Source of the DNA: Candidatus Shapirobacteria bacterium CG_4_10_14_0_8_um_filter_39_15
Lineage (GTDB): Bacteria; Patescibacteriota; Microgenomatia; UM-FILTER-39-15
Assembly: GCA_002784465.1 (NCBI GenBank)
Contig: PFLE01000013.1
Coordinates: forward strand, 10,972 to 74,971
Length of the DNA: 64,000 nucleotides
Reading direction: 5' to 3'
Shown: one piece after another, positions 27,963 to 53,760 of the stretch
How positions within the stretch are numbered: the stretch's first letter is position 1
How the letters are laid out: every line of letters begins with the position of its first letter
The notes under the pieces: model-generated
Told to the model about the DNA's origin: nothing
The model's database searches: none
Seen by the model: the letters and a program-made list of their open reading frames with translations, nothing else
Position numbers and translations under genes: made by a program

Positions 27963-28009
27963 ATAATTTATTTTTCAAAGCGCATAGGGTATAGTGTATA
28001 GGAGATGCG

Positions 28010-28375
28010 CTAAGACGTATTTTTCATTAAGGTTGTTAATATTTTAATAAGCTCTTCGTTCGTATCCTTAAATTTTTTAATTATTTGCTCGTCAAATTTA
28101 TTCGTTTCTAAAATAATTTCTAGCCAATAATCAGCTTCAAAACTGGAACCGCGAGCAATTCCTAAAAATTGATGATAACTTTTCGAATAATGTCTTCCAT
28201 AACCTTCAGCGATATTGGCGCCGATTGAAGAAACCGCTCTTATTAATTGTTTTATTAAGATTTCAGAAACTCGGTCCAACTTGGCATTGGCAAAATAGTT
28301 TATAACATCAATTGTTAAGGTTTTTGCCTTTTGATAGACGATTAGATTTTTATGGGAACTGGGCGGGTTTTCCAT
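28010..28375 (-). CDS. Four-helix-bundle protein (23S rRNA intervening-sequence protein / DGR Avd superfamily, PF05635-like), copy 1
   Basis: From the internal Met: MENPPSSHKNLIVYQKAKTL...AVSSIGANIAEGYGRHYSKSYHQFLGIARGSSFEADYWLEI matches the family pattern (WQKA...IxxNIAEGxxR...FLxIAxGSxxE). Confidence 0.7.
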   Translation of the reverse strand: MENPPSSHKNLIVYQKAKTLTIDVINYFANAKLDRVSEILIKQLIRAVSSIGANIAEGYGRHYSKSYHQFLGIARGSSFEADYWLEIILETNKFDEQIIKKFKDTNEELIKILTTLMKNTS

Positions 28376-28509
28376 TCTTTCTATGCACTTTGTGCTATGC
28401 ACTATGTTACTATCCATCGAGATTGGATTCAACTGCTTCAGACCCGATCACATTACAAACAAAATATGGCAAGTGGAAACAACTTGGTTGTTTGTGGTAA
28501 AATTAGGTT

Positions 28510-28932
28510 ATGGTTACCCGAGAACAAAAGGAAAAAATCTTTGCTTTGGGGAAAAAATACAATCTGGATTTTATTATCCTCTATGGTTCTGTGGCTAGAA
28601 ATCAGGCAGGAAAGCTTTCGGATTTAGATATTGCGGTTTATAAAAAAGGAGGGATTACTTCGGAAAAATATTTTGAACTTTACGGGAAAATGTTTGGGAT
28701 TTTTGAAAGTAAAGAAGTTGATTTAAAGACACTTAACGATCAGAGTATTTTATACCGGTATTTGGTGGTTCGCGACGGAATTTTGTTATTCGGAAATGAA
28801 TTGGAATATTTAAAATTTAAAACTTATATAATCCGTGATTATCAGGACAGCAAAGATCTTTTTGATTTGGCTGGATCTCTTGTTAGACGTCACCAGAAAG
28901 AATTGGAAGAAAGGTTAAATGTTAAATACTGA
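28510..28932 (+). CDS. Minimal nucleotidyltransferase (MntA-like antitoxin)
   Basis: LYGSVARNQAGKLSDLDIAV is the GS-x10-DxD NTase motif. Overlaps the downstream HEPN gene (ATGTTAAATACTGA). Confidence 0.75.
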   Translation: MVTREQKEKIFALGKKYNLDFIILYGSVARNQAGKLSDLDIAVYKKGGITSEKYFELYGKMFGIFESKEVDLKTLNDQSILYRYLVVRDGILLFGNELEYLKFKTYIIRDYQDSKDLFDLAGSLVRRHQKELEERLNVKY

Positions 28933-29353
28933 ATTTATCTACCAAAAAATTGCTTTAATCCGCCAAGATCTGGAATTTTTGGACAAAATGGCAAATTTGA
29001 GTTTTGAGGAAGTGGCTAAGGACTTCTATAAATACAATACCGTTCAAATGTTATTAATGAAAATCATTGGTCGAGCCATTGATATTAACGAACACCTTAT
29101 TGACGAATTGGCCAACGCAGAAACGAAATCGCCTGGGACTTATCGGGAAACTTTTTTACAACTGGCAGACTTGAAAATTTTACCGGCTGATTTTGCTTCT
29201 GAAATTGCCAAAAGCGCCGGATTCCGAAATGCAATTGTTCATGAATATGACAAATTAGACGATTTTATTATTTATAAAACAATCGGCGAGGCGGTAGTCC
29301 AATATACTAAATATTGCCATTATGTTTTAGATCTTATCTCCAGAAAGTCTTAA
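28919..29353 (+). CDS. HEPN-domain protein (HepT/DUF86-like toxin)
   Basis: R-x4-H-x-Y motif FRNAIVHEY near the C-terminus; overlapping pair with the preceding MNT. Confidence 0.75.
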   Translation: MLNTEFIYQKIALIRQDLEFLDKMANLSFEEVAKDFYKYNTVQMLLMKIIGRAIDINEHLIDELANAETKSPGTYRETFLQLADLKILPADFASEIAKSAGFRNAIVHEYDKLDDFIIYKTIGEAVVQYTKYCHYVLDLISRKS

Positions 29354-29425
29354 TTTTTCCAACCATCTTTAACTCTCGTCTTGTAGACAGGACAAGAATA
29401 TGATAAAATTGTTCCAAATGCAATT

Positions 29426-30703
29426 TTGAGGACTCTTTTATACGAATGGAAGGAAAGAAAATTACCCTTGGCCATAGAGCGCGATATTCATTTGGATATT
29501 TCCCGGCCGCCGGAAATTAAGAACGCCATGGTGATAACCGGTTTTCGGCGCGTAGGAAAGACCTATCTGCTTTATGAGACGATAGAAAAACTTTTAGAAA
29601 CTTATCCTCGTGAACAAGTGGTTTATCTTAATTTTGAGGATGAGCGGATAATCTCGCCCGCCACCGACCTTTTGACTGATCTCCTGCCGGAAATACAAGC
29701 GGTTTATGGTCAAAAACCTAAGTATTTATTTTTAGACGAACTGCAATTGATTCCCAATTGGTCAAAATGGGTACGCCGGATTCTTGATACGGAAACAGTC
29801 CAGATATTTATTACCGGTTCCTCCTCAAAAATGAGCAGTGCGGAATTACCGACTGAACTTCGAGGTCGGGCTTGGGAAACAAAAGTCGAGCCCCTTACTT
29901 TCAAAGAATTTTTGCGCTTTAAAAAAACTGCGATTGATAAGGAAAAGTTGACTTATGTAAAAGAAGAAGCGGCCCGTTTTTGTTTTCTTTTTGAGGAATA
30001 CATAACTTTTGGGGCATTGCCGGCCGTAGTCCTGACTCAATCCGAAAAAAAACAAGAGCTTTTACAGTCTTATTTTCAAACCGTGGTGCAAAGAGATATT
30101 GCCGAAAGATACAAAATAGACAACGACGTCGCCTTAAGAACCCTTTTGAAATTACTTCTTAATTCCAGTTATATCACCATATCCAAACTCACCAAGAACA
30201 TAAAAAGTCTGGGGATTCCCATTGGTAAATCAACCATTGACAGCTATCTCTCGTATATTGAAACCTCATATTTCCTAAATGAACTATATATTCATAATCC
30301 GGCGGTTATAAACCAATTGCAGTATCCGCGAAAGGTTTATTTTGTGGATACTGGGTTTATGACCGCCCTGTCAACAAAGTTTTCCAAAAACATGGGACGG
30401 TTATTTGAAAATGTTGTTTATCATAAACTCGCTCAAAGCAAGGAAACAATGTATTACTATAAAGACAATAAGGGAAATGAAGTTGATTTTGCGATTTTAG
30501 GGGAGGACAAAACGACCGCTTTGTATCAGGTTTGTTTTGATTTGACAGACGAAGAAATTCTCAATCGTGAAGTTAAATCACTTTTAAAAGCGAAAGAAAC
30601 GCTTAAATGCCAAAACCTTAATCTATTGTATCTTGAAAAAACAGAAACTTTTAAATTGCCTAAAGAAATTAAGCTTCTTTCCGCCCCGGAATTTTTCTTA
30701 TAA
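29426..30703 (+). CDS. AAA+ ATPase with C-terminal DUF4143 (COG1373 family), paralog 1
   Basis: Walker A ITGFRRVGKTYLL, Walker B LFLDELQ, restriction-endonuclease-like C-terminal region. Confidence 0.75.
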   Translation: MRTLLYEWKERKLPLAIERDIHLDISRPPEIKNAMVITGFRRVGKTYLLYETIEKLLETYPREQVVYLNFEDERIISPATDLLTDLLPEIQAVYGQKPKYLFLDELQLIPNWSKWVRRILDTETVQIFITGSSSKMSSAELPTELRGRAWETKVEPLTFKEFLRFKKTAIDKEKLTYVKEEAARFCFLFEEYITFGALPAVVLTQSEKKQELLQSYFQTVVQRDIAERYKIDNDVALRTLLKLLLNSSYITISKLTKNIKSLGIPIGKSTIDSYLSYIETSYFLNELYIHNPAVINQLQYPRKVYFVDTGFMTALSTKFSKNMGRLFENVVYHKLAQSKETMYYYKDNKGNEVDFAILGEDKTTALYQVCFDLTDEEILNREVKSLLKAKETLKCQNLNLLYLEKTETFKLPKEIKLLSAPEFFL

Positions 30704-30714
30704 ACTCAGTATAT

Positions 30715-30776
30715 TAAGTATTGTGGGTATATTTTGGATTTCATCTCAAAAAAGAATTAATTTTTCTTTACTACCA
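30715..30776. repeat. Conserved ~55-bp 3' element, copy 1 (also at 32060-32111)
   Basis: agtattgtgggtatattttggatttcatctcaaaaaagaattaatttttc versus aatattgcgggtatgttttagatttcatctcaaaaaagaattaatttttc. Confidence 0.6.
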
Positions 30777-30844
30777 GGCGAGCTTGGTAATTAGATAAAA
30801 AGGACTTGACAAATACAAATTATCAGATATAATGGATTTAGTAA

Positions 30845-32059
30845 ATGACAATTATCCGAGATTTAACCCTAAAGATAAATCATTACCTTCGATCGGAAGA
30901 GATTATTCTTATTATTGGAGCTAGACAATCGGGAAAAACGACGGTTCTTCATCAGTTGGAAGGATTCTTGCGTGAAGCAAAAGAGGTTTCCTTTTTTTTG
31001 AATCTAGAGGATTCAGAATATCTAACACTTTTGAACCAATCGCCAAAAAATATTTTTCAAATTTTTCCATTTGATCTAACCCAAAAAAACTTTCTTTTTG
31101 TTGACGAAATTCAATATTTGGATAATCCCTCAAACTTTTTAAAGTATTTATACGATGAATATGCGGGGAAAATTAAGATTATTGCTTCTGGTTCTTCGGC
31201 TTTTTATTTGGATAAAAAATTTAAAGAATCTTTGGCCGGGAGAAAAAGAATTTTTCAGTTATACACGCTTTCGTTTAAAGAATTTTTAAGATTTAAAGAC
31301 GAAACTCCGCTGGCCGAGAAGGATTTTATCGGATTAACTCTTTCGGAAAAGGAAAAAATAAGCCTTTACTATCAAGAATATGTGGTTTATGGAGGATATC
31401 CTAAGGTTGTTTTAGCGCCAAAAGAGGAAAAAGAAAATTTATTAAGTGATTTGGCCTACTCCTATATTAAGAAAGATATTTTCGAGTCGGGAATTAGGCA
31501 AGATGAAGTATTTTACCGGCTTTTTAAAATTTTAGCCTCGCAGACCGGAAACTTGGTCAATACCGCAGAATTAGCGGCAACCTTAGGAGTTTCTAAAACC
31601 GCGATTGATAATTATCTTTACACGATGCAAAAATCTTTTCATTTAGCTTTAATCCGGCCGTTTTTCCAAAACATCCGCAAGGAATTAACCAAAATGCCCA
31701 AAGTTTATTTTTTGGATTTGGGATTAAGAAACTTTTTTTGCAGCAATTTTAACCTTTTTGAAACACGGGATGATAAAGGACCGCTTTTGGAAAATGCCGT
31801 TTTTCGGCAGCTATTGGAAAAATATCCTTTGGAAGAGATTAAGTTTTGGCGGACAACGGCGAAACAAGAGGTTGATTTTATCGCTGGCGAAAACTCCGCT
31901 TTTGAGGTTAAATCGCAGGCAAAAAATGTCAGGCGGAAAGACTATCAAACCTTTTTAGAAAATTATCCAAAAATTAAGCTTTCCCTGGCTGTTTTTCAGG
32001 AAACAGAAAAAAAATCTAGCCCATTTCCCGTATATGAGGTTTGGCAGCTGCCAATTTAG
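30845..32059 (+). CDS. AAA+ ATPase with DUF4143 (COG1373 family), paralog 2
   Basis: IIGARQSGKTTVL, FLFVDEIQ; same architecture as paralogs 1 and 3; TTGACA-17-TATAAT promoter at 30808-30836. Confidence 0.75.
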   Translation: MTIIRDLTLKINHYLRSEEIILIIGARQSGKTTVLHQLEGFLREAKEVSFFLNLEDSEYLTLLNQSPKNIFQIFPFDLTQKNFLFVDEIQYLDNPSNFLKYLYDEYAGKIKIIASGSSAFYLDKKFKESLAGRKRIFQLYTLSFKEFLRFKDETPLAEKDFIGLTLSEKEKISLYYQEYVVYGGYPKVVLAPKEEKENLLSDLAYSYIKKDIFESGIRQDEVFYRLFKILASQTGNLVNTAELAATLGVSKTAIDNYLYTMQKSFHLALIRPFFQNIRKELTKMPKVYFLDLGLRNFFCSNFNLFETRDDKGPLLENAVFRQLLEKYPLEEIKFWRTTAKQEVDFIAGENSAFEVKSQAKNVRRKDYQTFLENYPKIKLSLAVFQETEKKSSPFPVYEVWQLPI

Positions 32060-32111
32060 TAAATATTGCGGGTATGTTTTAGATTTCATCTCAAAAAAGA
32101 ATTAATTTTTC
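32060..32111. repeat. Conserved 3' element, copy 2
   Basis: See copy 1; 30-bp core gatttcatctcaaaaaagaattaatttttc is identical. Confidence 0.6.
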
Positions 32112-32156
32112 CTCTTCCCTATTTGAATCTTGCAAAAAATGATATAATTCAAATAT

Positions 32157-33929
32157 ATGCCAGATCCAGAACGAAGACTGCCTATTCCTCCGCCCGAGGC
32201 CAGCCAGGAGCCAAGATACGTTCCTCCCGAAATGATGGGAAGTTATTATTATCCAATACAGGATAAGGATTTGGCGGTTGAGATTGTTAAGGCTAACAAC
32301 GAAACCCTTCCTGAAGTAATATCGAATGCGATTTCCTATAGCGAGGGATTAATTTTAGGACGGGAAGTAGATTTAACCGATGATAATGAAGTTCTGTTTT
32401 ATATGGGTTTATTCTTAACCGGCGAGGGTGCGTTAAAAGTTCCGCTATTTTCTTATGCCAATCAGGCTTTGGAAATTAGAACGAGTGGTCGAGTAAGAGA
32501 GATAAGAAGCGAGGCTAGAACAACGCGCAGACCGTTGACAGAGGAAGAAAAGAAAGAGAAAACACTTTTAATTGGGATGGAGAATTGGAACAATGCTCGT
32601 CAAACGGCTCATCAGGCTTTTTTGGAGAGAGTGATAACTTGTGCCTCCGAAGAGGCAGCTGCGGATTTGGCTTTGAATACTCCGGCTCAAAAAGCCCCGA
32701 CAACACCGGACAAAACCGTTTGGCAAAATCTTTTTGGCCAACCGACGAAAGAAGGAGAAGCAACTCCTCAAAGTGAGTTTGGTAATTACGTGGATCTCAC
32801 CATGAGAGGGTTGGTGGCAATAGGAATTCCTCCTAGGGGCACACCCGAGTTTGATCGCTTACACCCTGACTTTAAGAACTTCAATTTTAGAGAAGTTTTG
32901 CCGCCAGCGGATAGAAATATACTTCCATGTACGATCTATACGACGGGTTTTGATAGCGAAAGTTTTAAAGCCTTGCTTAATTATGCGTTGCATATTTCCG
33001 ATGGAAGAATGGATGTTGTTTGGGAAGCGTGGAAATTATTTGAGACATGGGAAATGACAACAAATTTCGGATATATGAAAGATTTTGGGCAGAAGAAAGA
33101 TACCCCTAAATATATACACGGAGATCATAAATTAGGAGGCGCCCCGATAATGAGTGCGCTTTATGCCTGGATAGATCATCTTCCGGAAAAAAGGGCTTTT
33201 GAATATGGATATTGGGCCGATGGTACTTTAAATCCGGAATCGCCTCACAAACTTTCCCATAGCGGACACCCCTTAAGTATTTCTAAAATTCCATCGCTTT
33301 GCGGAGATTTTCTTAAAGAAACGAAGGTTGATGCGCCCGGCGGAGGAAAAAAGTCACTTCGGGAAATTTGGGCAGGGGGAATGTCTTTTGCTGATCGCGA
33401 ATTTCCCTGGACGCATTTAGAACAAGCAACACAAGATATGTCGCGGCTTGAGGAACAGGATTTTGGATCTTACAGCAGTTGGTTATTTAGGCGAAGAAGA
33501 GCTTTCAATATGGTTAAGGATATTAGAGAATTACCCTTCAAAGGTTTAAATGATTATGGAAAAGCAGACTTCTTTTCTTCGAGAATCAGAAACTGGAGGA
33601 ATACTTTGTATTTGCCGAAAGCGGATCAATATACACCAGATCAAAATCCGATGGTTTGGTTAATGGCAGACATCATTTTTAATCATCATCCGGAAACTAA
33701 CAATCATATTCCTTGGGCGCAAAAAAACCCGGATTTAGCTCTAAGAACCAGCCTTGATCCAAAAGAACGGTTTTCTTTTAATCCTATAAACGATCCCGAC
33801 GCAAAAAAACTATCTGCTTGGGAATTTTTAAGAGCTGGTTATGATTCAACCTGGATAACAAAGAAAGATGCTGAGTGGATTCGGGATTATCTTAAGATTC
33901 CTACCGCGGTGGGACAAAGAGGTCTTTAG
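32157..33929 (+). CDS. Hypothetical 590-aa cytoplasmic protein; W/Y/H-rich; no recognisable domain; locally higher GC
   Basis: Long uninterrupted ORF, no TM or signal peptide. First 150 nt about 47% GC versus about 37% background. Confidence 0.5.
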   Translation: MPDPERRLPIPPPEASQEPRYVPPEMMGSYYYPIQDKDLAVEIVKANNETLPEVISNAISYSEGLILGREVDLTDDNEVLFYMGLFLTGEGALKVPLFSYANQALEIRTSGRVREIRSEARTTRRPLTEEEKKEKTLLIGMENWNNARQTAHQAFLERVITCASEEAAADLALNTPAQKAPTTPDKTVWQNLFGQPTKEGEATPQSEFGNYVDLTMRGLVAIGIPPRGTPEFDRLHPDFKNFNFREVLPPADRNILPCTIYTTGFDSESFKALLNYALHISDGRMDVVWEAWKLFETWEMTTNFGYMKDFGQKKDTPKYIHGDHKLGGAPIMSALYAWIDHLPEKRAFEYGYWADGTLNPESPHKLSHSGHPLSISKIPSLCGDFLKETKVDAPGGGKKSLREIWAGGMSFADREFPWTHLEQATQDMSRLEEQDFGSYSSWLFRRRRAFNMVKDIRELPFKGLNDYGKADFFSSRIRNWRNTLYLPKADQYTPDQNPMVWLMADIIFNHHPETNNHIPWAQKNPDLALRTSLDPKERFSFNPINDPDAKKLSAWEFLRAGYDSTWITKKDAEWIRDYLKIPTAVGQRGL

Positions 33930-36946: not shown

Positions 36947-37014
36947 TTATAAATTTGAATATCGAATATCGAAATCCGAAACAATTTTCAAAATTCAAAA
37001 TTTCAAGTTAAAAT

Positions 37015-37330
37015 TCAAAAGTTTTTGCTTTTAAGTTTGATTACGCCAGCGGCTAACATATTAGCAATTTCCGTAACTTCATTTAGCAATCGTATAATAC
37101 TTTCTTTTTTCTCTACCAAGCCGGAATCTCTTAAAAGGCATAACCAATATTTTGTTTCGTTGGCACTTCTTAAAGCAATCTCGTAAAATTTCTTGAACTC
37201 CAAGCGGGAGCTAGAAGCTCCTCCTTCAATAAGATTTGCTCCGATTGACATTGCCGCCCTTAATAATTAATCAGCAATAACCCAAGCGGCTCGTTTATTA
37301 GGAAGAGTGTCCATTAACGTAATTATAGCG
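37015..37330 (-). pseudogene. Truncated or frameshifted four-helix-bundle (IVS/Avd-like) gene, copy 2
   Basis: The ORF MSIGANLIEGGASSSRLEFKKFYEIALRSANETKYWLCLL covers only the C-terminal half of the family. An upstream out-of-frame remnant (MDTLPNKRAAWVIAD*) resembles the RRAAxSI segment. Confidence 0.5.
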
Positions 37331-37445
37331 AGGCTAAATTGATAACACCGTGTCTTTAAATCACTTTTAAATTTTGAATTGTAATTTTGCATTTTGAATT
37401 TTGCCTTTTGACTTTATGTAATTAAATTTTAAATTTCAAATTGGT

Positions 37446-40400
37446 TTATGGTTTGCAACAAACATTCACACCTCCGCAACCATCCCCGCCGGGTAGTCCA
37501 GTGCCGAGAGTGTCATTTGCAGCACAACTATCAGTGCAAGTTCCACCCAGTTGAGAACAAGAGAGGACGGGGTTAACGCTCGTTAAGCTGGCTGGAAACA
37601 GACTGTTGGTTACCCATTGTTTTGCCTGTTGGATTCCGCCCAAGTGGGGGAAATAAAACTGGCCTTCGGTCGGAGAAGTTGAACCGTCTTTGTGTCTTTG
37701 AAGGGGACAATCACCTTTGATTGGTAGGTTTCCGGAACACCAACCAACCTGATCGCTGTAAGGTGTATATTTTATTGTTGCCTGGCTTATTGCTGGTGTA
37801 TCCGGAAAACCGGGATGAAAGGAAGGACGAAAAATATTAAGCACCCCCATTGATCCACTGGTCTGATTCCAAATATCATCAAGATAGGGGTGAATTAAGC
37901 TGACCCCTATATTACGGCTAACTTGCTCACTATCATTCCAGATGGTTGGTTGGCTTCCTTCTCGGCCGGTCCATTCGTAACATCGATTATCAGTATTTTG
38001 TATTTGGACACAGACCGGATCAGGCGCAACATTATTGGGATTTGCCCAATCACCGGCTTCACAAGTTACCGTATGTCCGTTTCCTCGTCCACCCAAATCA
38101 AGACAGGGGTCCATATTTATCTGATCATATTTTCCTTCTTCAAGCAGCCAAGCTTGACAAGCCCAACTGGATCCATTGCAGGCAACATATCGATTATTTT
38201 CAAATTTATCCACCGCGGTTAGTTTATATTGAATATTGCTGCAGCAAAGAGTATCGCCGGTTCCGGTAATGGCATCTTTTTTAATACAGGAATCAATTGA
38301 TTTGGCTGGATCCTGGAAACAAGTTGGCGGTGGGGCCGGGGCAACACCGCAAGTCGTATCCCATTTATAAGTCCCATCGGCGTTTTGAGCCAAGGTGATA
38401 CTGCAAGAAACGGATCCTCCATCCACGCAGCAGTTCGCTCGGGAACCGCCGGAAGCTTTTGTCCAATTGGCAGAAACTGTAAAAGCATCGCCAACATTCA
38501 TATTTATGGTGCTGGGATGATAATTAGTTCCCCATTGAGTTTCCCATTTACCCGGACACTGGATTTCTGGACCGCCAGTGTCTGATAAAAATCCGCTGGC
38601 GCCTCCAGAATCATAGATTGATAAATTCTTTAAATGGGAAATACCGTCACAATTTTGTCCGGCCGGACAGGGAACACAAAAATAAGATTTAAAACTATGT
38701 TGTCCTGGGGCTGGAGCATCAATATCATAAAAAGTCATATTACCTGTACAGTATCTTTGGCAGGGTGGAGGAGTCGCCGCCTGAACGGATTTGGGACTAA
38801 ATAAGCCAGTGAGTGGATTGTTGGTAGAGGAATTATCAGCAAGAACATTCTGGTTATTGGAAATTTGGGCCGTTGTGGTAATTGGTTCATTGTAGGGAAT
38901 TAAAATACTGGAAACTATTTTACTTGATTCATATAATCTTGCCAGATGGGGAACTTTTTCAACCTGATTTTTATTGGTGGGATCTAAATTTGTAAAAGTG
39001 TCTTCGTTTTTAGCACCTAAATAAGGTTGAATCAGGCCTTCGGTATCTTCCCGGGAAACCAATGGAACCGCTTCCCAAATACGCCCCCAAGTACTTTTTT
39101 TCCAAGTCGCCCACTTTATTTCATAATCAGAGTCGTTGACCGAAGGAGGAAGATGACTGGCAATTTCCGAAAGTTTTTTATGCCCTTCGAGGTCTGAAAA
39201 CGGCGGAATCGGTATAAAACCCATACTATAATAACGAACGTCTATAGGTAAGAGCTTCCCTAATGGTGATGCGTTATAAGCTCGTAAGATTAAACCAATT
39301 TTATCAATTTCCACAGCTTGATCAGCACTATTATTAAATAAACAATGATGAAACCATTCATCCTTGCTAGGTACAGGTACTCCTAATTTTTTATAAATTA
39401 AACTAATTAAATTAAATTCGTTCCAAATATCATAAGAAATCTCCATAATAAACGGAGCATCCCAACAAAGACGGGTTGGATAGTTAACCATATAATCATG
39501 AATTTTTCCTTCAAAAGGCGCTTGGGTATTAAGCGAGCGCACCGCCCTGGCGACCATTTGTTCTTTAAGGGTGTCTTGGTAGGTCATGGGTGTTAATTTT
39601 CTTAAAACCCCGGCATAATTAACATAATCCAACCAGTATTTTTCATAGTTTTTATAATATTCATTTGTTCCTTCAAAATAATCCGCCAAATATTTACTTT
39701 CACTTTCTTGGTCTTCCTTACCCACAAAAGGAATAGTAATATCTTTTGGATTAATCGTAATTGTTCCGCCCCAAGTGGTAGTGACTAAATGAGGAACAGT
39801 TAACGTTGCATCAGTACAGCTATCTGGACCCATCCATCTTTGCCAGGAAACATGATCAGTGACGGTAAAACTGGTAGCGCAGCTGCCGGAATTATTACCA
39901 ATATTGCAAGCTTGACAGGCGACCGGTCGGGAATTACGGTCACCGTTTTGAGTTAGGTCGCAAACCGTTGATGGATAATTCGGAAGGGGGGGTTTAGTAT
40001 CAATCGTTCCCGGAAGTGTAGTATTTGCTTTTGCGGGTGTATTACAAGGATCCCACCAATCGTTTTTCCAGCGCGGATCCATAAATCCGCCGGTATCTCT
40101 AATTGCCACCTGAATATCTCCGTGAGCCGTTCCTAATATTTCGGAAGCACCTAAAGCGGGTAGTTGAACCCGTCCGGCAGCATTAAGTTGATTATATAAA
40201 GCTAAAAGTTCCGGTCTAACGGTAAAATTTCCCATAATATGGATACCGTATCCGTTTCTAATCCCGCCGCCGGTATTATACATAATAAAAATCTCATTAG
40301 ATGAAGCATAATAAACCATCACCTGTTTGCCGTTGCCGATACTAAACGGAGCAGCGGGCACAAGGATATTTCCGGTTGATGAACCGTTAGTGGAAAAACC

Positions 40401-40742
40401 AACAACTGAAGCATAATCACTTGGGTTTTCTTTTATAGTTTCTAAAGCATCAATCGGTAAATTGGTACCACTATCATATTGATGAATTCGGTATAAAGTG
40501 GTAACCACTGGCCGGGCATCATCCTCAACCAAACCGCACAATCTGGGAGCACTGTTTACGGGATGCGCGAAATAAAAAAGACCATAATTATGACCTTGCT
40601 CACCGATTGGAATTTGAACTAAACCTCTTAAGCTTATTCTTAGATCCAGATCGGTTTCTGCAGTACGGGCATAAATTGGGGAAGATATACCAGCAAACCA
40701 GACAACCAGTAAACTAGAAAACCCGAATAGAAGTTTCTTCAT
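37446..40742 (-). CDS. 1098-aa secreted Cys/Trp-rich surface protein, candidate pilus-associated adhesin; C-terminus carries a defensin-like 6-Cys motif
   Basis: Signal peptide MKKLLFGFSSLLVVWFAGISSPIYA. Last gene of the pilin operon. Terminal CSQLGGTCTDSCAANDTLGTGLPGGDGCGGVNVCCKP has the pattern C-x6-C-x3-C-xn-C-x5-CC. Confidence 0.55.
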   Translation of the reverse strand: MKKLLFGFSSLLVVWFAGISSPIYARTAETDLDLRISLRGLVQIPIGEQGHNYGLFYFAHPVNSAPRLCGLVEDDARPVVTTLYRIHQYDSGTNLPIDALETIKENPSDYASVVGFSTNGSSTGNILVPAAPFSIGNGKQVMVYYASSNEIFIMYNTGGGIRNGYGIHIMGNFTVRPELLALYNQLNAAGRVQLPALGASEILGTAHGDIQVAIRDTGGFMDPRWKNDWWDPCNTPAKANTTLPGTIDTKPPLPNYPSTVCDLTQNGDRNSRPVACQACNIGNNSGSCATSFTVTDHVSWQRWMGPDSCTDATLTVPHLVTTTWGGTITINPKDITIPFVGKEDQESESKYLADYFEGTNEYYKNYEKYWLDYVNYAGVLRKLTPMTYQDTLKEQMVARAVRSLNTQAPFEGKIHDYMVNYPTRLCWDAPFIMEISYDIWNEFNLISLIYKKLGVPVPSKDEWFHHCLFNNSADQAVEIDKIGLILRAYNASPLGKLLPIDVRYYSMGFIPIPPFSDLEGHKKLSEIASHLPPSVNDSDYEIKWATWKKSTWGRIWEAVPLVSREDTEGLIQPYLGAKNEDTFTNLDPTNKNQVEKVPHLARLYESSKIVSSILIPYNEPITTTAQISNNQNVLADNSSTNNPLTGLFSPKSVQAATPPPCQRYCTGNMTFYDIDAPAPGQHSFKSYFCVPCPAGQNCDGISHLKNLSIYDSGGASGFLSDTGGPEIQCPGKWETQWGTNYHPSTINMNVGDAFTVSANWTKASGGSRANCCVDGGSVSCSITLAQNADGTYKWDTTCGVAPAPPPTCFQDPAKSIDSCIKKDAITGTGDTLCCSNIQYKLTAVDKFENNRYVACNGSSWACQAWLLEEGKYDQINMDPCLDLGGRGNGHTVTCEAGDWANPNNVAPDPVCVQIQNTDNRCYEWTGREGSQPTIWNDSEQVSRNIGVSLIHPYLDDIWNQTSGSMGVLNIFRPSFHPGFPDTPAISQATIKYTPYSDQVGWCSGNLPIKGDCPLQRHKDGSTSPTEGQFYFPHLGGIQQAKQWVTNSLFPASLTSVNPVLSCSQLGGTCTDSCAANDTLGTGLPGGDGCGGVNVCCKP

Positions 40743-40747
40743 TGTTG

Positions 40748-41059
40748 TTACGAGCTGGGAATACTAAAGTTGAGAACATCAACACCGGTGAATTGCCAAA
40801 TAAATTTCATAATCAACCAGATAATTACCAGCATCACCAGGCCAAAAATGGCATAGGTTATGGTTTGAGAAGCCGAGGCAGACGCTTTTGGATCTCCTCC
40901 GGAAGTCATATATTTAAAACCACCCATGATCAACAAGATAAATAAAAGCAAAACCCCCAGCTGGGCCGCGATATTCAAAATAATTTTAAATATGCACTCG
41001 AATCCTTGAAGAGTTGCAACGCCGCCGATTGTACATTTAGGATCTTCCCAAATAGCCAT
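40748..41059 (-). CDS. VirB2/TrbC-like small pilin paralog
   Basis: Two hydrophobic helices flanking the loop motif GGFKYMTSGGDPKAS...AIFGLVMLVI. This pattern is shared by all eight paralogs. Confidence 0.55.
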   Translation of the reverse strand: MAIWEDPKCTIGGVATLQGFECIFKIILNIAAQLGVLLLFILLIMGGFKYMTSGGDPKASASASQTITYAIFGLVMLVIIWLIMKFIWQFTGVDVLNFSIPSS

Positions 41060-41142
41060 ATATTTAGTTTATCAGACCATAATAAAAACACAATACCCCG
41101 AGCCAAGCTCCGGGTATTGTAATTCTTGTACAAAAATCCAAC

Positions 41143-41535
41143 CTAAATCGTTGGAATATTTACGTTGAGAATGTGGATGTCAAAGAATTTCTCAATTAAG
41201 CTCGTAATTGCCCAAGCCGAGAAAACAATGACTAGACCGATTAAAGCGGCCGTGATTCGATTCTTCGCGCCCTCGGTTCCAGCCTTATCACCGCCGGAAA
41301 CTAGCCATTGAATACCGCCGATGACCAGCATAAAGAAAAAGGCCAAAGCGGCAACTACCATAATCAATTGAACAATTGCCGAAAGCATTGAACCAATATC
41401 TAAATTAGCCATATTAACCCATTGGCCAGTGGTGGGTTTTAAATTAATTATGTCGTTTGCTTGGGCAAAGGCTGACCCGGCTAGGTTAACCATTAAGCTT
41501 GCAGTTCCTGCTAAAGATAAAATTGTTTTTTTCAT
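41143..41535 (-). CDS. VirB2/TrbC-like small pilin paralog with signal peptide
   Basis: LVIGGIQWLVSGGDKAGTEGAKNRITAALIGLVIVFSAWAI. Confidence 0.55.
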   Translation of the reverse strand: MKKTILSLAGTASLMVNLAGSAFAQANDIINLKPTTGQWVNMANLDIGSMLSAIVQLIMVVAALAFFFMLVIGGIQWLVSGGDKAGTEGAKNRITAALIGLVIVFSAWAITSLIEKFFDIHILNVNIPTI

Positions 41536-48327: not shown

Positions 48328-49299
48328 ATGAACGATAAATTACAGGAAAAACTTAAAACCTTAACCGAGAAAAAAAAGGAACTGGATAAACAGAAACCTT
48401 TAACCGCCGAGGTTCTAAAAAATCTTGAAGGATGGTTGAAAGTTGAGTTGACCTATTCTTCTAATGCGATTGAGGGAAATACCTTAACTCGGTTAGAAAC
48501 GGCAGAGGTGATTGAGAAGGGGATTTCGGCGGCCTTGACAGGCAAATCCCTGCAAGACCAACTGGAAGCCATAAACCACGCAAAAGCGGTAGAGTTTATC
48601 AAAACCCTTGCCAAAGAGGAAAAGAGTCATCAATTTATAACCGAGCAAGATATCAAAGCGATTCATAAAATTATCCTCACGGGTATTAATGACGAGTGGG
48701 CGGGCAGATACCGGGAAAGCGATATGACAGAATTTATTCAGTGGCTCGAGACACAACAAAATATCCACCCGTTTCGGGTTGCCGCTGACGCTCATTTCAA
48801 GTTCGTGTCTATTCACCCTTTTGTTGATGGTAACGGAAGAACGGCCAGACTTCTCATGAACCTTATTTTAATTATCAATGGTTATCCCATGGCCATTATT
48901 AGAAATGAAAACAGAACCGAATATCTGGATGCGGTAAATACCGGACAGACTAAAGGCAATTTGGAAATGTTTTACGCGGTTATAGAAGAAGCAGAAGAAC
49001 GCTCTCTTGATGCTTACCTCAATGCCGCCCGAGGCAAACCAGTCATTCCTGTTTTAATGGGTAAAGACAAAGAGACAAAACTTCTCAAGATTGGAGAACT
49101 TGCCCAAGCCGCCAGAGAAACGAAACCGACGATCAGGTTTTGGACCAAAGAGGGATTATTGGAAATTGCCAAGCTTACAAAAGCAGGTTATGCGCTTTAT
49201 GACTCTAAAATGATCGAAAGAGTCAAAGAAATTAGACGCCTGCAGAATGAGGAGAGGTTATCAATTGCAGAGATTAAAAATAGACCAAACTTCGAATGA
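48328..49299 (+). CDS. fic: Fic-family protein (class II, N-terminal inhibitory helix) with C-terminal MerR-like/winged HTH
   Basis: Fic motif HPFVDGNGRTARLLMNLIL. Inhibitory motif S-x-x-x-E-G in YSSNAIEGN. C-terminus KPTIRFWTKEGLL...YALYDSKMIERVKEIRRLQNEERLSIAEI. Confidence 0.85.
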   Translation: MNDKLQEKLKTLTEKKKELDKQKPLTAEVLKNLEGWLKVELTYSSNAIEGNTLTRLETAEVIEKGISAALTGKSLQDQLEAINHAKAVEFIKTLAKEEKSHQFITEQDIKAIHKIILTGINDEWAGRYRESDMTEFIQWLETQQNIHPFRVAADAHFKFVSIHPFVDGNGRTARLLMNLILIINGYPMAIIRNENRTEYLDAVNTGQTKGNLEMFYAVIEEAEERSLDAYLNAARGKPVIPVLMGKDKETKLLKIGELAQAARETKPTIRFWTKEGLLEIAKLTKAGYALYDSKMIERVKEIRRLQNEERLSIAEIKNRPNFE

Positions 49300-49306
49300 T
49301 TTTTCA

Positions 49307-49348
49307 AGATAAACAACCCGATAATTTAGTAACTTGACTTTATGAATT
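49307..49348. promoter_or_regulatory. Perfect 12-bp inverted repeat AACCCGATAATT ... AATTATCGGGTT (18-nt spacer containing TTGACT) between fic and ATPase paralog 3
   Basis: Seen directly; could be a terminator for fic or an operator for the ATPase gene. Confidence 0.45.
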
Positions 49349-49369
49349 ATCGGGTTAAAATATAAGTAT

Positions 49370-50617
49370 ATGATAAAACGGAAGATTTTTAAGGAACTCA
49401 AAGACCATTTAGATAAAAAAGAAATTACCCTGATTGTTGGTCCTCGTCAGGCAGGGAAAACAACTTTGATGGTGCTTTTAAAAGAACACCTGGAAGCTCA
49501 AGGTAAAAAAACAATTTTTTTCAATCTTGATATTGAAGCGGATAAACAACTCTTTGTTTCTCAAGAGCAATTATTGCACAAAATAGCCATAGAAATAGGG
49601 GAGAGTGAAGGCTATGTGTTTATTGACGAAATCCAACGCAAAGAAAACGCCGGGTTGTTTTTAAAAGGATTGTATGACATGAATCTACCATACAAGCTGA
49701 TTGTTTCCGGTTCAGGCTCAGTCGAACTCAAAGAAAAGATCCATGAGTCCTTAGCCGGGAGGAAACGTGTGTTTGAACTTTCAACATTAAGTTTTATTGA
49801 GTTTGTGAATTACAAAACAGAATATAAGTATGAAATCAAGCTTCCAGAATTTTTTGCGATCGAACCAAACCAAACCCAAAGACTATTAGAGGAATATCTG
49901 AGCTATGGTGGCTATCCGCGCGTGATCCTTGAAGACACGGTTGATCGGAAGCGTCGGATTATGGCCGAACTGTATCAAAGTTATTTAGAGCGTGATATTG
50001 TCTCCTTGCTCGGAATTAAAAAGACTGAAAGTTTTACGGCCTTGGTTCAAATTATGGCCTCGCAGGTAGGTAATTTAGTGAATGTAACTGAACTTTCCAA
50101 TACTTTAAATATTTCAACAGTAACCGTCAGTGATTATCTGTGGTATATGCAAAAGACCTTTTTGGTAGATAAGGTTACTCCATATTTCAGGAACATAAGA
50201 AAAGAAATAACCAAAGCTCCAGTATTTTATTTTTATGATTTAGGCATGAGAAATTATGCCCTTGGTACTTTTGGGACAACTCCCATTAGCGATAACGGCT
50301 TTCTGTTTCAAAACTTCATTTACCATTTGCTTAAAAATAAAACTCAAGACTCCTCGGCTCGGGTTCACTATTGGAGAACGACCGATAAGGCAGAAGTAGA
50401 TTTTGTGATAGATAAAGTTCAGGAAGTTATTCCGATTGAAGTGAAGTATAAAAAGCTGTCAGAGACGGAGACAACAAGGTCATTTCAAAACTTCCTTTCG
50501 AAGTATCAACCCAAACTAGGGTATGTTATTCATCTGGGGAAAGAGAGCAAAGAAAGAGTAGGAAATACAGAAATTGCCTTTTTGCCTTATTCTCAATTCC
50601 TTTTTCAAGATTTATAG
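49370..50617 (+). CDS. AAA+ ATPase with DUF4143 (COG1373 family), paralog 3
   Basis: IVGPRQAGKTTLM, VFIDEIQ; collinear with paralogs 1 and 2. Confidence 0.75.
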   Translation: MIKRKIFKELKDHLDKKEITLIVGPRQAGKTTLMVLLKEHLEAQGKKTIFFNLDIEADKQLFVSQEQLLHKIAIEIGESEGYVFIDEIQRKENAGLFLKGLYDMNLPYKLIVSGSGSVELKEKIHESLAGRKRVFELSTLSFIEFVNYKTEYKYEIKLPEFFAIEPNQTQRLLEEYLSYGGYPRVILEDTVDRKRRIMAELYQSYLERDIVSLLGIKKTESFTALVQIMASQVGNLVNVTELSNTLNISTVTVSDYLWYMQKTFLVDKVTPYFRNIRKEITKAPVFYFYDLGMRNYALGTFGTTPISDNGFLFQNFIYHLLKNKTQDSSARVHYWRTTDKAEVDFVIDKVQEVIPIEVKYKKLSETETTRSFQNFLSKYQPKLGYVIHLGKESKERVGNTEIAFLPYSQFLFQDL

Positions 50618-50670
50618 CATTCGTCTCCTCGAATGATTTTTCTCCCTTTTACGACTAAATAATTACCAGT

Positions 50671-51816
50671 ATGAAGAATATTGTTGTCTTAGGTTCAACC
50701 GGTTCGGTTGGGAAACAGACATTGGAAGTGGTTGAAGCCCATCCGGAAGAATTTAAAGTTGTTGGATTAGGCTGTAATTCTAATATCGATTTGTTAAGGC
50801 AACAGGCGGACAAGTATAAACCGGATTGGTTGGCGGTTAGTGATGAAAAAAAAGGCCGTCAACTTTCCGTGAAATTGGCAAACAAAAAAATCAAAGTCTT
50901 TTTTGGTGAAGATTCCTTGTCTCGAATTGCCGTTCACCCAAAGGCAGAAATGGTGGTCGTGGCGGTGATGGGAGCGGCCGGAATAAAGCCAACCCTGATG
51001 GCGATCAGGGCAAGAAAAGACATTGCCCTGGCGACCAAAGAAGTAATGGTCGCGGCCGGTGATTTAGTTAACGAAGAAGTGAAGAAAAATAAAATTAATT
51101 TAATTCCGGTTGATTCGGAACACAGCGCCATTTTTCAGTGTTTGCATTATGACGATCGGAAGGAAGTCGGCAAAATTTATTTAACCTGTTCGGGCGGGGC
51201 ATTCCGCGGTAAAAAAAGATGCGATTTGGAAAATGTTAAACCAAAAGACGCCTTAAGGCACCCGAATTGGAAAATGGGCGCCAAAATTACCATTGACTGC
51301 GCGACATTGATGAATAAAGGCTTGGAAATGATTGAAGCCCAAAAACTTTTTGGGTTGGCAATTAACCAGGTGGAAATAGTTTTGCATCCCCAAAGCGTAA
51401 TTCACTCTATGGTAGAATTTGTGGATGGCAATATCATTGCCCAGCTTGGACCGGCGGATATGCGTTTTCCGATTCGTTACGCCTTGGCTTTTCCGAAAAG
51501 ATTAAAAAATCATTTTACTTTTCTTAACCCTTTTACTACCCCGCAAATGAATTTTTCATCCCCTGATTGGGAAACTTTTGAATGTTTATCCTTGGCTAAA
51601 AAGGCGGCCGAAATCGGAGGGACAATGCCGGCGGTTTTAAATGCCGCGGATGAAATCGCGGTTGGTCTTTTCCTGCAAAATAAAATCAAATTTCTGGAAA
51701 TTCCCAGGTTGGTTAAGAAAATAATGGAAAATCACCGGGTGATTAATCAGCCAACACTGGAAGAAGTTTTTCAGGCCGATGACTGGGCGAGAAAACAAAC
51801 CAGTGGTATGATATAG
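50671..51816 (+). CDS. dxr: 1-deoxy-D-xylulose 5-phosphate reductoisomerase
   Basis: VVLGSTGSVGKQTLEVV N-terminus, and PVDSEHSAIFQC, LTCSGGAFRG conserved blocks. Confidence 0.9.
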   Translation: MKNIVVLGSTGSVGKQTLEVVEAHPEEFKVVGLGCNSNIDLLRQQADKYKPDWLAVSDEKKGRQLSVKLANKKIKVFFGEDSLSRIAVHPKAEMVVVAVMGAAGIKPTLMAIRARKDIALATKEVMVAAGDLVNEEVKKNKINLIPVDSEHSAIFQCLHYDDRKEVGKIYLTCSGGAFRGKKRCDLENVKPKDALRHPNWKMGAKITIDCATLMNKGLEMIEAQKLFGLAINQVEIVLHPQSVIHSMVEFVDGNIIAQLGPADMRFPIRYALAFPKRLKNHFTFLNPFTTPQMNFSSPDWETFECLSLAKKAAEIGGTMPAVLNAADEIAVGLFLQNKIKFLEIPRLVKKIMENHRVINQPTLEEVFQADDWARKQTSGMI

Positions 51817-51818
51817 GG

Positions 51819-52307
51819 GTGATTGACAAGATTGATCAGGCAAAATTATTAAATTTTATTAAAAGCAAGGTTGGAGATAACGACGAAGTTGAAGAAATTT
51901 ATCAGGAAACTTTAATTTCGGCTTATGAATCATTGGGGCGTTTTTCAGGAAGATCGACAATTTTTACCTGGTTGGTGAGTATCGCCAGACACGAAATCGG
52001 TGATTATTATCGAAAAAGGAAAATTAAAATTTTTCTTTTTTCTCACCTTCCCTGGTTGGAAAATCTAGCGACCGAGGCCTTAGGTCCGGAGCAGGAACTA
52101 TTAAAAAAAGAATTACAAACAAGAGTAATAAGGGTGATGGGGGAAATAAGGGAGGAATATCGACAAGTCCTAAAATTAAAATATTATGAAGGATTCTCGG
52201 TTTTGGAAATTGCGCAAAAATTAAATGAAAATACAAAAACAATTGAATCAAGACTTTTCCGGGCCCGGGTCTCTTTTGCTAAAACTTTCACTGCTGACCG
52301 CGGTTAA
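51819..52307 (+). CDS. ECF-type sigma-70 family sigma factor (GTG start)
   Basis: Region 2 (IYQETLISAYESLGRF...FTWLVSIARHEIGDYYRKR) and region 4 HTH (VLEIAQKLNENTKTIESRLFRAR). Confidence 0.75.
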   Translation: MIDKIDQAKLLNFIKSKVGDNDEVEEIYQETLISAYESLGRFSGRSTIFTWLVSIARHEIGDYYRKRKIKIFLFSHLPWLENLATEALGPEQELLKKELQTRVIRVMGEIREEYRQVLKLKYYEGFSVLEIAQKLNENTKTIESRLFRARVSFAKTFTADRG

Positions 52308-52377
52308 AGAAAGCTATTTGTTTTTGGCCAATCTTTACGGTTTTCTTTTTCACCCCCAAAAAACCTTAAGAAAAATT

Positions 52378-52482
52378 ATGGCTGACCGGTCGCAATTCGG
52401 ACTTTTTGCGGCCAGCGGTTTTGGCTTGATTCTGTTTTTTGCCTTCTTAGCCTTTCTTTTTTACTGGTTTTTTGTAAAATGA
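52378..52482 (+). CDS. Small hydrophobic protein downstream of the sigma factor (possible minimal anti-sigma or membrane peptide)
   Basis: MADRSQFGLFAASGFGLILFFAFLAFLFYWFFVK; start uncertain. Confidence 0.3.
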   Translation: MADRSQFGLFAASGFGLILFFAFLAFLFYWFFVK

Positions 52483-53207
52483 CAATGAAAATGGAAAACA
52501 TTCCGACACATGTGGCGATTATTATGGATGGCAACCGCCGTTGGGCGGCCAAAAACGGTTTAGGGGCCGTGGCGGGCCATGAGAGGGCGGCCAAAAAGGC
52601 AATTGAACCGTTGGTAGAACGAGCCGCCAAAATGGGAATTTCCTATCTTACTTTTTGGGCGTTTTCAACCGAGAACTGGAAGAGAGACAAACAAGAGGTT
52701 GAGGGTTTGTTTAGAATTTTCCGCGAGGTTTTAGGCGATAAGATTGATTGGTTAAATGAAAAAGGAGTTAAGGTTCGGTATATTGGGGATATTGAAAAAT
52801 TTCCGGCTGATATTTGCGATAAAGTGAAACAAGGAATTGAAAAAACCAAAAATAATACCGCGATTACGGTTTCTTTTGCCTTAAATTACGGCGGCCGGGA
52901 TGAAATTTTAAGAGCGATCAAAAAAGTCCTAGCCGCGGGTGTTACCGACGGAGAATTAACCGAGGAAAGATTTTCCCAATTTTTGGATACGGCGGGTATT
53001 CCTGATCCTGATTTAATTATCCGAACCGGCGGCCAACTCCGTTTGTCCGGCTATCTTCCCTGGCAAAGCATTTATGCCGAGCTTTATTTTACCCCGGTTT
53101 TGTTTCCGGATTTTAGTCCAGCGGAATTTGATAAGGCGATTGAGGAATATCAGCAAAGAACAAGAAGGTTTGGGGGGGGAAAGTTTAAAGACTATAAAAA
53201 GAAGTGA
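52479..53207 (+). CDS. uppS: Undecaprenyl diphosphate synthase (cis-prenyltransferase)
   Basis: HVAIIMDGNRRWA, FSTENWKR, RTGGQLRLSGYLPWQS motifs. Confidence 0.9.
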   Translation: MTMKMENIPTHVAIIMDGNRRWAAKNGLGAVAGHERAAKKAIEPLVERAAKMGISYLTFWAFSTENWKRDKQEVEGLFRIFREVLGDKIDWLNEKGVKVRYIGDIEKFPADICDKVKQGIEKTKNNTAITVSFALNYGGRDEILRAIKKVLAAGVTDGELTEERFSQFLDTAGIPDPDLIIRTGGQLRLSGYLPWQSIYAELYFTPVLFPDFSPAEFDKAIEEYQQRTRRFGGGKFKDYKKK

Positions 53208-53211
53208 ATCA

Positions 53212-53290
53212 GCACACAAGAGCACTAGTACGTCAGAACACCAGAGCGCTGGAAACTAGTACACTGGTGCACTAGATCACCAGATCACTA
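53212..53290. repeat. Left arm of CACTAGTAC-word inverted repeat flanking four-helix-bundle gene copy 3
   Basis: cacaagagcactagtacgtcagaacaccagagcgctggaaactagtacactggtgcactagatcaccagatcactagtactctagg; partner arm at 53681-53760. Confidence 0.6.
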
Positions 53291-53308
53291 GTACTCTAGG
53301 ATAGGATT

Positions 53309-53668
53309 ATGAACGAAGATGCTTCTTACAAAAAACTAATAATTTGGCAAAAGGCCGATCTTTTTGCTAGAGAAATCTATAAAGTCACAGTATTTTTTCC
53401 CAAAGATGAAATATATGGTTTAACCTCCCAGATACGAAGAGCTGTTCTCTCCGTTGTTCTTAATATTATTGAAGGTTATGCAAGAAATAATAAGAAAGAA
53501 TTTAAGAATTTTTTAAGGATTGCTTATGCTTCGTTGGTTGAGGTTGAATATTTGCTCGAATTTTCATCTGTTAGAGGCTACATAACGAAAGAAAAATATT
53601 TTTTTCTTAATGGTTTAAGAGACGAATGTGGAAAAATTCTTTGGAAGTTTATGCTTTCCCAAAAATAG
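53309..53668 (+). CDS. Four-helix-bundle protein (23S-IVS / Avd superfamily), copy 3
   Basis: KKLIIWQKADLFAREIYKVT...GLTSQIRRAVLSVVLNIIEGYARNNKKEFKNFLRIAYASLVEVEYLLEF. Confidence 0.75.
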   Translation: MNEDASYKKLIIWQKADLFAREIYKVTVFFPKDEIYGLTSQIRRAVLSVVLNIIEGYARNNKKEFKNFLRIAYASLVEVEYLLEFSSVRGYITKEKYFFLNGLRDECGKILWKFMLSQK

Positions 53669-53680
53669 CGATTTATTATC

Positions 53681-53760
53681 CTGGCGTACTAGTGTACTAG
53701 TGTTCTGGAGTACTCGTTTGTTGGTTCTGGTGTACTGGCTCACTAGTGTTCTAGTGTACT
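53681..53760. repeat. Right arm of CACTAGTAC-word inverted repeat
   Basis: ctggcgtactagtgtactagtgttctggagtactcgtttgttggttctggtgtactggctcactagtgttctagtgtact. Confidence 0.6.

Follow-up and report, generated by a model that had tools for sequence, protein, structure and literature searches.

Relation to rRNA intervening sequences and heptamer repeats

The nearest published counterparts of the loci described here are the rRNA intervening sequences (IVSs) and the TAACTGA heptamer repeats (PMC4679880), the latter not linked to any gene. In the 23S rRNA IVSs of Leptospira, Coxiella burnetii, Xanthomonas, and Brucella, terminal inverted repeats pair into a stem, the loop of which contains an open reading frame (ORF) of the S23p family. 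Tandem GACAGAT heptamers are found beside the S23p ORF of the Coxiella IVS (2-3 full copies, depending on the strain, and one degenerate copy), and the 28-bp terminal stem of this IVS is cut by RNase III, the cleavage removing the Shine-Dalgarno (SD) sequence (PMC4990558). ORF-bearing IVSs are sporadically distributed and are regarded as horizontally acquired selfish elements (PMC4990558). The TAACTGA repeats of Beggiatoaceae, cyanobacteria, and Bacteroidetes are direct repeats without an associated gene, with one inverted set (MacGregor 2015, PMC4679880). In the present work, we analyzed a 64-kb stretch of the Candidatus Shapirobacteria bacterium CG_4_10_14_0_8_um_filter_39_15 genome (contig PFLE01000013.1, positions 10,972 to 74,971; hereinafter the window), which contains three four-helix-bundle (4HB) genes of the same family (S23p / 23S_rRNA_IVP, PF05635/TIGR02436). 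Each of these genes, termed c1, c2, and c3, is located between mutually reverse-complementary arrays of 7-8-nt words, hereinafter the arms.

Comparison of the three loci and their homologs with the described systems revealed several characteristic features: (i) as in the 23S rRNA IVSs, an S23p ORF lies in the loop of a terminal-inverted-repeat stem, and, as in Coxiella, where the copy number of the heptamers varies between strains, tandem words adjoin the ORF, (ii) unlike the IVSs, the loci are not inserted in rRNA, none of which was detected by Rfam in the window or near any of 60 homolog loci, and occupy intergenic junctions of protein-coding genes, and (iii) the arms are longer than those of the IVSs (up to ~95 nt) and consist almost wholly of 7-8-nt words. 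An IVS-like architecture outside any rRNA had been proposed in a first-pass annotation of the window, and this proposal is borne out. Excision by RNase III has been demonstrated for the rRNA members only. Like the STRR and TAACTGA repeats, the arrays are built of head-to-tail units of 7-8 nt, occur as intergenic tandem 7-nt words that are often directly upstream of start codons, and have a patchy distribution that suggests horizontal spread. The overlap extends to the organisms, since Nostoc and Calothrix carry 4HB loci with GGGTGTA arrays. The STRR repeats to which we liken the arrays were reportedly described by Mazel and co-workers in 1990, and the CCCCAGT words in the arms of one homolog locus (L020) are presumably cyanobacterial STRR1.

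The explanation that we favor, with a probability of about 60%, is that each locus is a small self-contained cassette of ~0.4-0.55 kb, in which a single gene for a 4HB protein of ~120 aa is bracketed by word-built terminal inverted repeats. By analogy with the rRNA members, we infer that these cassettes are the free-standing form of the ORF-bearing 23S rRNA IVSs, and their distribution suggests that they act as small units that are mobile or, at the least, exchangeable. We found no account of free-standing 4HB genes with inverted word arrays in the full-text literature, a coverage that leaves out most subscription journals, so that earlier work may exist.

Three four-helix-bundle genes in the window

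The window has a GC content of 39.6% and holds one tmRNA and two tRNA-Ser genes. Its 4HB genes are the following, and tblastn over the window found no fourth copy.

28010-28375, minus strand: c1, intact 4HB gene, 121 aa
37015-37362, minus strand: c2, decayed 4HB gene with an in-frame TAA at 37267-37269, no start codon, and a missing N-terminus
53309-53668, plus strand: c3, intact 4HB gene, 119 aa

The products of c1, c2, and c3 match PF05635 with 93.8, 77.0, and 116.1 bits (cut-off 33.8; E-values 9e-27, 1.5e-21, and 1.1e-33) and TIGR02436 with 94.9, 89.8, and 107.4 bits (cut-off 24), far above the cut-offs of both models, and share just 30-36% pairwise identity. These matches confirm the family assignment of the first-pass annotation, the coordinates of which were correct to within a few bases; it had also called c2 a pseudogene, in agreement with the in-frame stop codon and the missing start codon. 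The nearest homologs of c2 are 47-52% identical to it. The c3 protein is 100% identical to a "four helix bundle protein" of Ca. Shapirobacteria CG08 at NCBI and is related in sequence to two proteins of solved structure, the pentameric XCC0516 (2GSC, E-value 6.5e-14) and chain 2RLD. The family is large, with 16,128 clusters at 50% identity in a single-sequence search (E<=1e-3), and 9 of its polar residues are invariant (Q, R, S, N, E, G, S, E, and Y), which points to a specific binding or catalytic site. To our knowledge, the S23p / 4HB family has had no assigned function since 1993, except for the role of its Avd branch in diversity-generating retroelements.

Avd is a pentamer-forming 4HB protein that works on nucleic acid as the partner of a reverse transcriptase. 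The c3 protein weakly matches the models bAvd (PF22296, 38.9 bits) and DivGenRetAVD (NF033474, 32.6 bits), and the Avd and PF05635 proteins are homologous four-helix bundles (PMC10053308). That the three loci are remnants or accessory Avd genes of diversity-generating retroelements is nevertheless very improbable: both scores are under the curated cut-offs (40 bits for PF22296 and 80 bits for NF033474), none of the neighboring genes scanned contains a reverse transcriptase domain, and no template/variable repeat pair was seen near the loci.

Word arrays pair across each gene

Tandem Repeats Finder reported repeats at all six arms, which are listed below.

53210-53303, plus strand: upstream arm of c3, period-8 words of the CACTAGTA / CACCAGAT type, beginning 3 nt past the UppS stop codon
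53677-53761, plus strand: downstream arm of c3, reverse-complement words GTACTAGT, period 8, ~9.8 copies, ending on the stop codon of the convergent pilin gene
37363-37445, minus strand: upstream arm of c2, CAAAATT / CAAAATG heptamer array, best-paired core at 37363-37403
36947-37022, minus strand: downstream arm of c2, best-paired core at 36982-37022, overlapping the last codons of the ORF; GAATATC / CGAAAT words in the outer part
28381-28406, minus strand: upstream arm of c1 in the sense of the gene, CATAGTG / CATAGCA / CAAAGTG words, period 7
27976-28001, minus strand: downstream arm of c1, eroded

Since the ORF dominates the whole-locus folds of c1 and c2, we chose to evaluate the duplex of arm against arm, using 300 dinucleotide shuffles as the reference. 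The arms of c3 form a duplex of -95.1 kcal/mol (z-score -9.1), as good as which none of the 300 shuffles was, and the whole c3 locus also folds better than expected (z -6.2). The cores of the c2 arms (41 nt, period 7) are 83% complementary, and only two longer inverted repeats within 700 nt exist in the 64-kb window, whereas their comparison with the shuffles yields only z -1.9 (14/300), because the sequence is A/T-rich, repetitive, and low in complexity. The c1 arms (26 nt, 73% complementary, z -2.9, 3/300) are weak when taken alone and do not belong to the 25 longest inverted repeats of the window; the orthologs of c1 have longer xAGTACA arrays with z-scores of -4 to -6.8. Folded as whole loci, c1 and c2 do not reach significance (z -0.4 and -1.4, respectively). 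An ORF looped out by a long inverted repeat, the arrangement described in the first-pass annotation, was confirmed. The expected advantage of the stems over shuffled sequences is clear for c3, and c1 and c2 taken alone are modest.

The c3 module occupies the entire gap between the stop codon of UppS and that of the convergent pilin gene. The SD-like AGGA of c3 (53299-53302) is located within the stem, so that translation of c3 would probably need the stem to be opened or cut. The c3 module is identical in ten independent assemblies of one population; it is therefore no assembly artifact, and for the same reason these assemblies are uninformative on the evolution of the arms. No Rfam family matches the arms of c1-c3, and scans for promoters and terminators around c3 and c1 found nothing above the shuffled expectation.

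Flanking arrays in homologs from other genomes

Two sets of homologs were compared with c1-c3; individual loci in other genomes or contigs are labeled L followed by a number. The first set comprises 83 genes that are 47-67% identical to c3, from GTDB contigs with one genome per species, and originates from the Candidate Phyla Radiation (CPR), Omnitrophota, Nitrospirota, Planctomycetota, Ignavibacteria, Chlorobium, and others. The second set includes 69 genes on metagenome contigs found via a different motif, SIGAN/YWL, that is common to c1 and c2. For every gene, the 110 nt preceding the start were paired with the 110 nt following the stop, the result was evaluated against dinucleotide shuffles, and windows of the same geometry shifted by 1.3 kb served as controls.

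The inverted repeats that the first-pass annotation expected in homologs elsewhere are indeed present. Complementarity of the flanks with z<-3 was observed for 36 of the 83 genes in the first set (median -2.35), compared with 2/143 shifted controls (median -0.06; Mann-Whitney p = 6e-20), and for 24/69 genes in the second set, compared with 0/82 controls; together, these are 60/152 homologs vs 2/225 controls. An array with a period of 7 or 8 nt in at least one flank was found in 27/83 and 35/69 genes of the two sets vs 1/150 and 3/95 control windows (overall, 62/152 genes vs 4/245 windows). The median array contains ~4.5 copies of the word. In the first set, the best autocorrelation lag of the periodic arms was 7 or 8 in 47 of 48 arms, the remaining one having a lag of 6. 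Arrays or significant complementarity characterize 58-68% of the homologs. These counts, together with the z-score of -9.1 for the c3 arms, leave a next to negligible probability that the stems are chance complementarity of low-complexity sequence, an explanation that would fit the modest arm scores of c2 and c1 taken alone (z -1.9 and -2.9) and their non-significant whole-locus folds.

Inverted arrays also flank 4HB genes in cultured cyanobacteria, namely Calothrix brevissima NIES-22 and Nostoc punctiforme PCC 73102, where they consist of GGGTGTA/GGGTGTG words (z ~-6). On plasmid1 of Calothrix NIES-22 (L172) and on pNPUN01 of Nostoc punctiforme (L173), the 4HB cassette is directly downstream of a tyrosine recombinase / phage integrase gene. 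On pCC7120gamma of Nostoc PCC 7120 (L171), the 4HB gene adjoins an ISL3 transposase and has word arrays on both sides, CTTCAAA upstream and GGCAGAG-type words downstream. The L171 arrays are not complementary (z -0.7), which suggests that the arrays may be a more basic feature than the stem. We also considered a universal word motif or a fixed polarity of the arms and rejected both, as c3-like upstream arms are C/A-rich and the cyanobacterial and L109 arms are G/T-rich.

Arms and gene as a single unit

The word families are distributed by protein subclade, with xAGTACA/xAGTGCA words in the c1-like, A-rich xxCAAAA/TAAAA words in the c2-like, and CAC[ACT]AG-type octamers in the c3-like loci; for instance, L001, 67% identical to c3, carries the same GTACACTA words as c3. 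The more similar the proteins, the more similar the 6-mer content of the arms (Mantel rho 0.16, p<=0.001), which does not hold for flanks located 310-400 nt away (rho 0.00).

The limits of the unit are most clearly defined by L054 and L056, two contigs of one Ignavibacteria metagenome-assembled genome (MAG), which are 99.3% identical over exactly 415 bp and have unrelated flanks. This unit is bounded by TAGAGCACAAGAGCACAAG ... CTTGTGCTCTTGTGCTCTA, a perfect 19-nt terminal inverted repeat of two to three words. In addition, 49 pairs of loci show at least 75% nucleotide identity that is confined to the ORF, reaching up to 66 nt into the arms in the best pairs, and is bordered on either side by 400 nt or more of unrelated sequence. 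Pairs with labels of different phyla reach 81% (Nitrospirota/Nitrospinota) and 76% (Nitrospirota/Omnitrophota). Together with the junctions found empty in one genome and filled in another (see below), these loci represent a discrete unit with terminal inverted repeats at unrelated sites. These alignments show that the arms and the ORF are passed on, duplicated, and transferred from genome to genome together.

No two cassette copies within the window are alike. With one word family per subclade and arm words that track protein similarity, c1, c2, and c3 represent three old cassette lineages, one of which is decaying. The first-pass annotation had attributed the difference between their arms either to compensatory evolution or to independent acquisitions. 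The former is not supported, as the word families follow the protein subclades; the latter stands in the form of the three old lineages. Among the c1 orthologs, arms pair slightly better with their cognate partner than with non-cognate arms (-28.4 vs -23.3 kcal/mol). This advantage is small because the orthologs share one word family, within which the words drift, and we rejected it as evidence of compensatory change.

A motif TGTGAAAAAGG...CTTGAA...CACTTCACGAAGTAA occurs ~60-110 nt upstream of the start of c1 orthologs, before the upstream arm, in L092-L094, L097, and L099. It is absent from the window and L096 and may act as a promoter or form a small structured element.

Gain and loss at orthologous junctions

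The window shares broad synteny with two contigs of Patescibacteria, L174 and L175. At the convergent junction of the pilin and UppS genes, the window contains the 551-bp c3 cassette (53208-53758), whereas L175 is empty and has a 3-nt spacer (TAA-AAA-TTA). The same junction in L174 is occupied by a cassette from a lineage unrelated to c3 (27% identity), which carries GAGAAGTG words and scores z -4.7, and a c2-like cassette lies between two pilin genes of the same contig. Orthologs of the c1 type, 48-65% identical and with an intact ORF, are syntenic upstream of a PrgI-like gene in at least eight relatives (L092-L097, L099, and L175), and L174 lacks a c1-type cassette at this position. Downstream of the PrgI-like gene, L096 has a second 4HB cassette, where the window has just an ORF-less word hairpin (26868-26995). 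These alignments show cassettes that are present in some genomes and absent from others at orthologous intergenic junctions, and the cassettes flag junctions prone to gain and loss.

The same comparison bears on the proposal that c1, c2, and c3 are ordinary host genes under RNA-level control, spread mainly vertically with occasional transfer, and that the inverted arrays act as a stem for processing or stability, thereby controlling how much of a useful RNA- or DNA-binding protein is made. The syntenic c1 orthologs with intact ORFs favor this proposal, as do the SD sequence within the c3 stem and the nine invariant polar residues, which suggest a conserved molecular function. We consider it rather unlikely, since near-identical copies occur at unrelated loci of one genome (L054/L056), sequences from different phyla resemble each other only within the module, relatives have the same junction either empty or filled, in L174 by an unrelated lineage, and pseudogenes such as c2 retain their arms.

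The cassettes sit at junctions between conserved and variable segments. The 28.0-37.4 kb block between c1 and c2 had been suspected to be a 9.4-kb mobile island bracketed by the two copies. This is refuted by the genes for 527-aa and 590-aa orphan proteins in the middle of the block, which have syntenic orthologs in both L174 and L175. Only two sub-segments of the block are variable, MNT/HepT/2x AAA_14 beside c1 and AbiEii/o194 beside c2, and both have a lower GC content (0.335-0.345). In L099, HepT/MNT/DUF4143 are likewise found beside the c1 ortholog.

The surrounding genes form a type IV secretion system (T4SS)-like or pilus cluster (24360-27962 and 37446-41535) that is syntenic across Patescibacteria (L174 and L175). 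It includes several T4SS_pilin genes, a gene for a protein of ~900-1100 aa without a Pfam match, the 527-aa and 590-aa orphans, and PrgI-like, TraC-like, and TraG P-loop ATPase genes. In this genome, the cluster is interrupted at two points by toxin-antitoxin and ATPase genes.

Proposed fate of the cassettes

The close match to the rRNA IVSs, including the Coxiella stem, heptamers, and RNase III cleavage, leads us to propose that the arms pair in transcripts and are cut. In a host read-through transcript, pairing of the arms would produce a long duplex that encloses the ORF as a loop, and RNase III would probably cut this duplex, as in the rRNA-borne members. Such a cut would separate the cassette and the RNA on either side of it and leave the insertion nearly neutral, and loss of the ORF would produce the ORF-less word hairpins seen across this genome. 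Our preferred guess is that the 4HB protein binds its own word arrays. The co-variation of words and protein is as compatible with simple co-inheritance as with such self-recognition.

At the DNA level, the arms are genuine inverted repeats. The sense stem is more stable than the antisense stem in 34/60 loci (p = 0.054), a weak trend in a comparison that also covered G-U content. A strictly RNA-level signal is not supported.

Several observations weigh against the cassette explanation or some of its parts. The c1 gene has kept one position and an intact ORF through long vertical descent, and this persistence would be expected of a domesticated gene, or one useful to the host, no less than of a selfish one. 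About 35-40% of the homologs have neither arrays nor significant complementarity, and many loci are MAG contigs, the taxonomic labels of which are possibly unreliable. Pfam and scans of neighboring genes found no transposase, recombinase, or reverse transcriptase within the unit, and no clear target-site duplication was seen at the flanks of L054/L056 or c3, where no systematic search was made; the mobility of the cassettes is deduced from their distribution only. As sense and antisense stems are of similar stability, the data do not separate maintenance at the RNA level from that at the DNA level. Finally, no sigma-70-like site was detected upstream of c3, which is only weak evidence of co-transcription, since CPR promoters may differ. 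A search with the PADLOC defense models yielded no match.

A bolder extension of the cassette explanation, which we put forward tentatively and regard as doubtful, is that the 4HB cassettes are minimal autonomous mobile elements and form a very large class that has so far been overlooked. Their ring-forming 4HB protein would bind the words of its own terminal repeats and drive copying or retro-copying of the cassette, similarly to its homolog Avd, which partners a reverse transcriptase. There might be approximately one word per subunit, given the median of ~4.5 copies and the pentamers formed by solved relatives. If so, the rRNA IVSs, the cyanobacterial heptamer arrays, and the in-frame hairpins of CPR genes would be products of one system.

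If most family members are the cargo of word-array cassettes, there would be (i) a concrete origin for the rRNA IVSs, (ii) a candidate source of the unexplained heptamer arrays in cyanobacteria and other phyla, and (iii) an explanation for hairpin insertions in CPR genes. These hypotheses are testable in cultured Nostoc punctiforme and Calothrix. In genome annotation, the word arrays should not be confused with CRISPR-like or other repeats.

Word hairpins without an ORF and other arrays

Word hairpins that lack an ORF are scattered through the window, some of them within coding sequence, and had been overlooked in the first-pass annotation. The following were characterized.

54982-55037: ORF-less palindrome of c3-type words GTACTAGT / CACTAGTG, 1.2 kb from c3, in the signal-peptide region of a SpoIID-like ORF; z -2.3
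26868-26995, minus strand: ORF-less 128-nt word hairpin in the spacer where L096 has its second 4HB cassette; z -4.4
4109-4229, plus strand, and ~4378-4500: two word hairpins in tsaD, in-frame insertions of CAGTAAAA / TTACTG words; z -3.5 and -2.6, respectively

The hairpin at 26868-26995 belongs to a dispersed family of ~125-nt hairpins with AATCAG/CTGATT words, which also includes 17455-17590 (plus strand), 3745-3875, 16657-16728, 54814-54930, and 59424-59475; pieces of these copies are 84-92% identical. Most of the copies checked are in intergenic spacers just upstream of start codons, a location that suggests possible promoter or 5' untranslated region functions.

The tsaD hairpin at 4109-4229 is the longest inverted repeat in the window. 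The two tsaD hairpins are 92% identical over the central 73 nt and 85% identical over the whole alignment. In this essential gene (3910-5154), each insert amounts to ~35-40 aa, both encode VGKTVKKVTEITDYCSTD, and the Pfam TsaD match is split into three stretches. Words of the CAGTAAAA/TTACTG type also flank a 4HB gene in L009 (Blackburnbacteria), and CAACAGT within the first hairpin (4140-4150) is a heptamer that we take to be STRR3.

Rickettsia palindromic elements (RPEs) are short palindromic units dispersed over a genome, and essential genes tolerate their in-frame insertion. Both the two in-frame hairpins of tsaD and the family of ~125-nt hairpins resemble RPEs and miniature inverted-repeat transposable elements (MITEs). 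Unlike MITEs, which have a parent with a recognizable transposase, the only candidate parent here encodes a 120-aa helical bundle without a known catalytic domain.

The abundance and dispersal of ORF-less word hairpins in this genome would agree with a reversed order of events, in which the hairpins came first as a host-specific class of repeats similar to MITEs or repetitive extragenic palindromes, and 4HB genes preferentially landed in, or were captured by, their loops; the arms would in that case lie outside the gene's own unit. The spacer that has a hairpin in the window and a 4HB cassette in L096 favors this order, and rRNA IVSs are known to replace loops of pre-existing helices (PMC4990558). 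We regard it as unlikely, though less so than an Avd or chance origin, since the similarity between loci and phyla includes the arms and ends where the arms end, the word family tracks the protein clade and not the host, and the words of the dispersed hairpin family differ from those of c1-c3.

One-sided arrays were also observed in coding sequences of the window, and all of them are translated as low-complexity peptide. An array of ACTTTTG with 7.7 copies within a Wzy_C-like ORF (15155-15207) is 87% similar to the upstream arm of c2, an array of ACCAGAAA is located at the N-terminus of a 1098-aa ORF (40689-40727), and tsaD contains arrays of AACAATAT and ATTTAAA words (4682-4711, 4822-4849, and 4985-5016).

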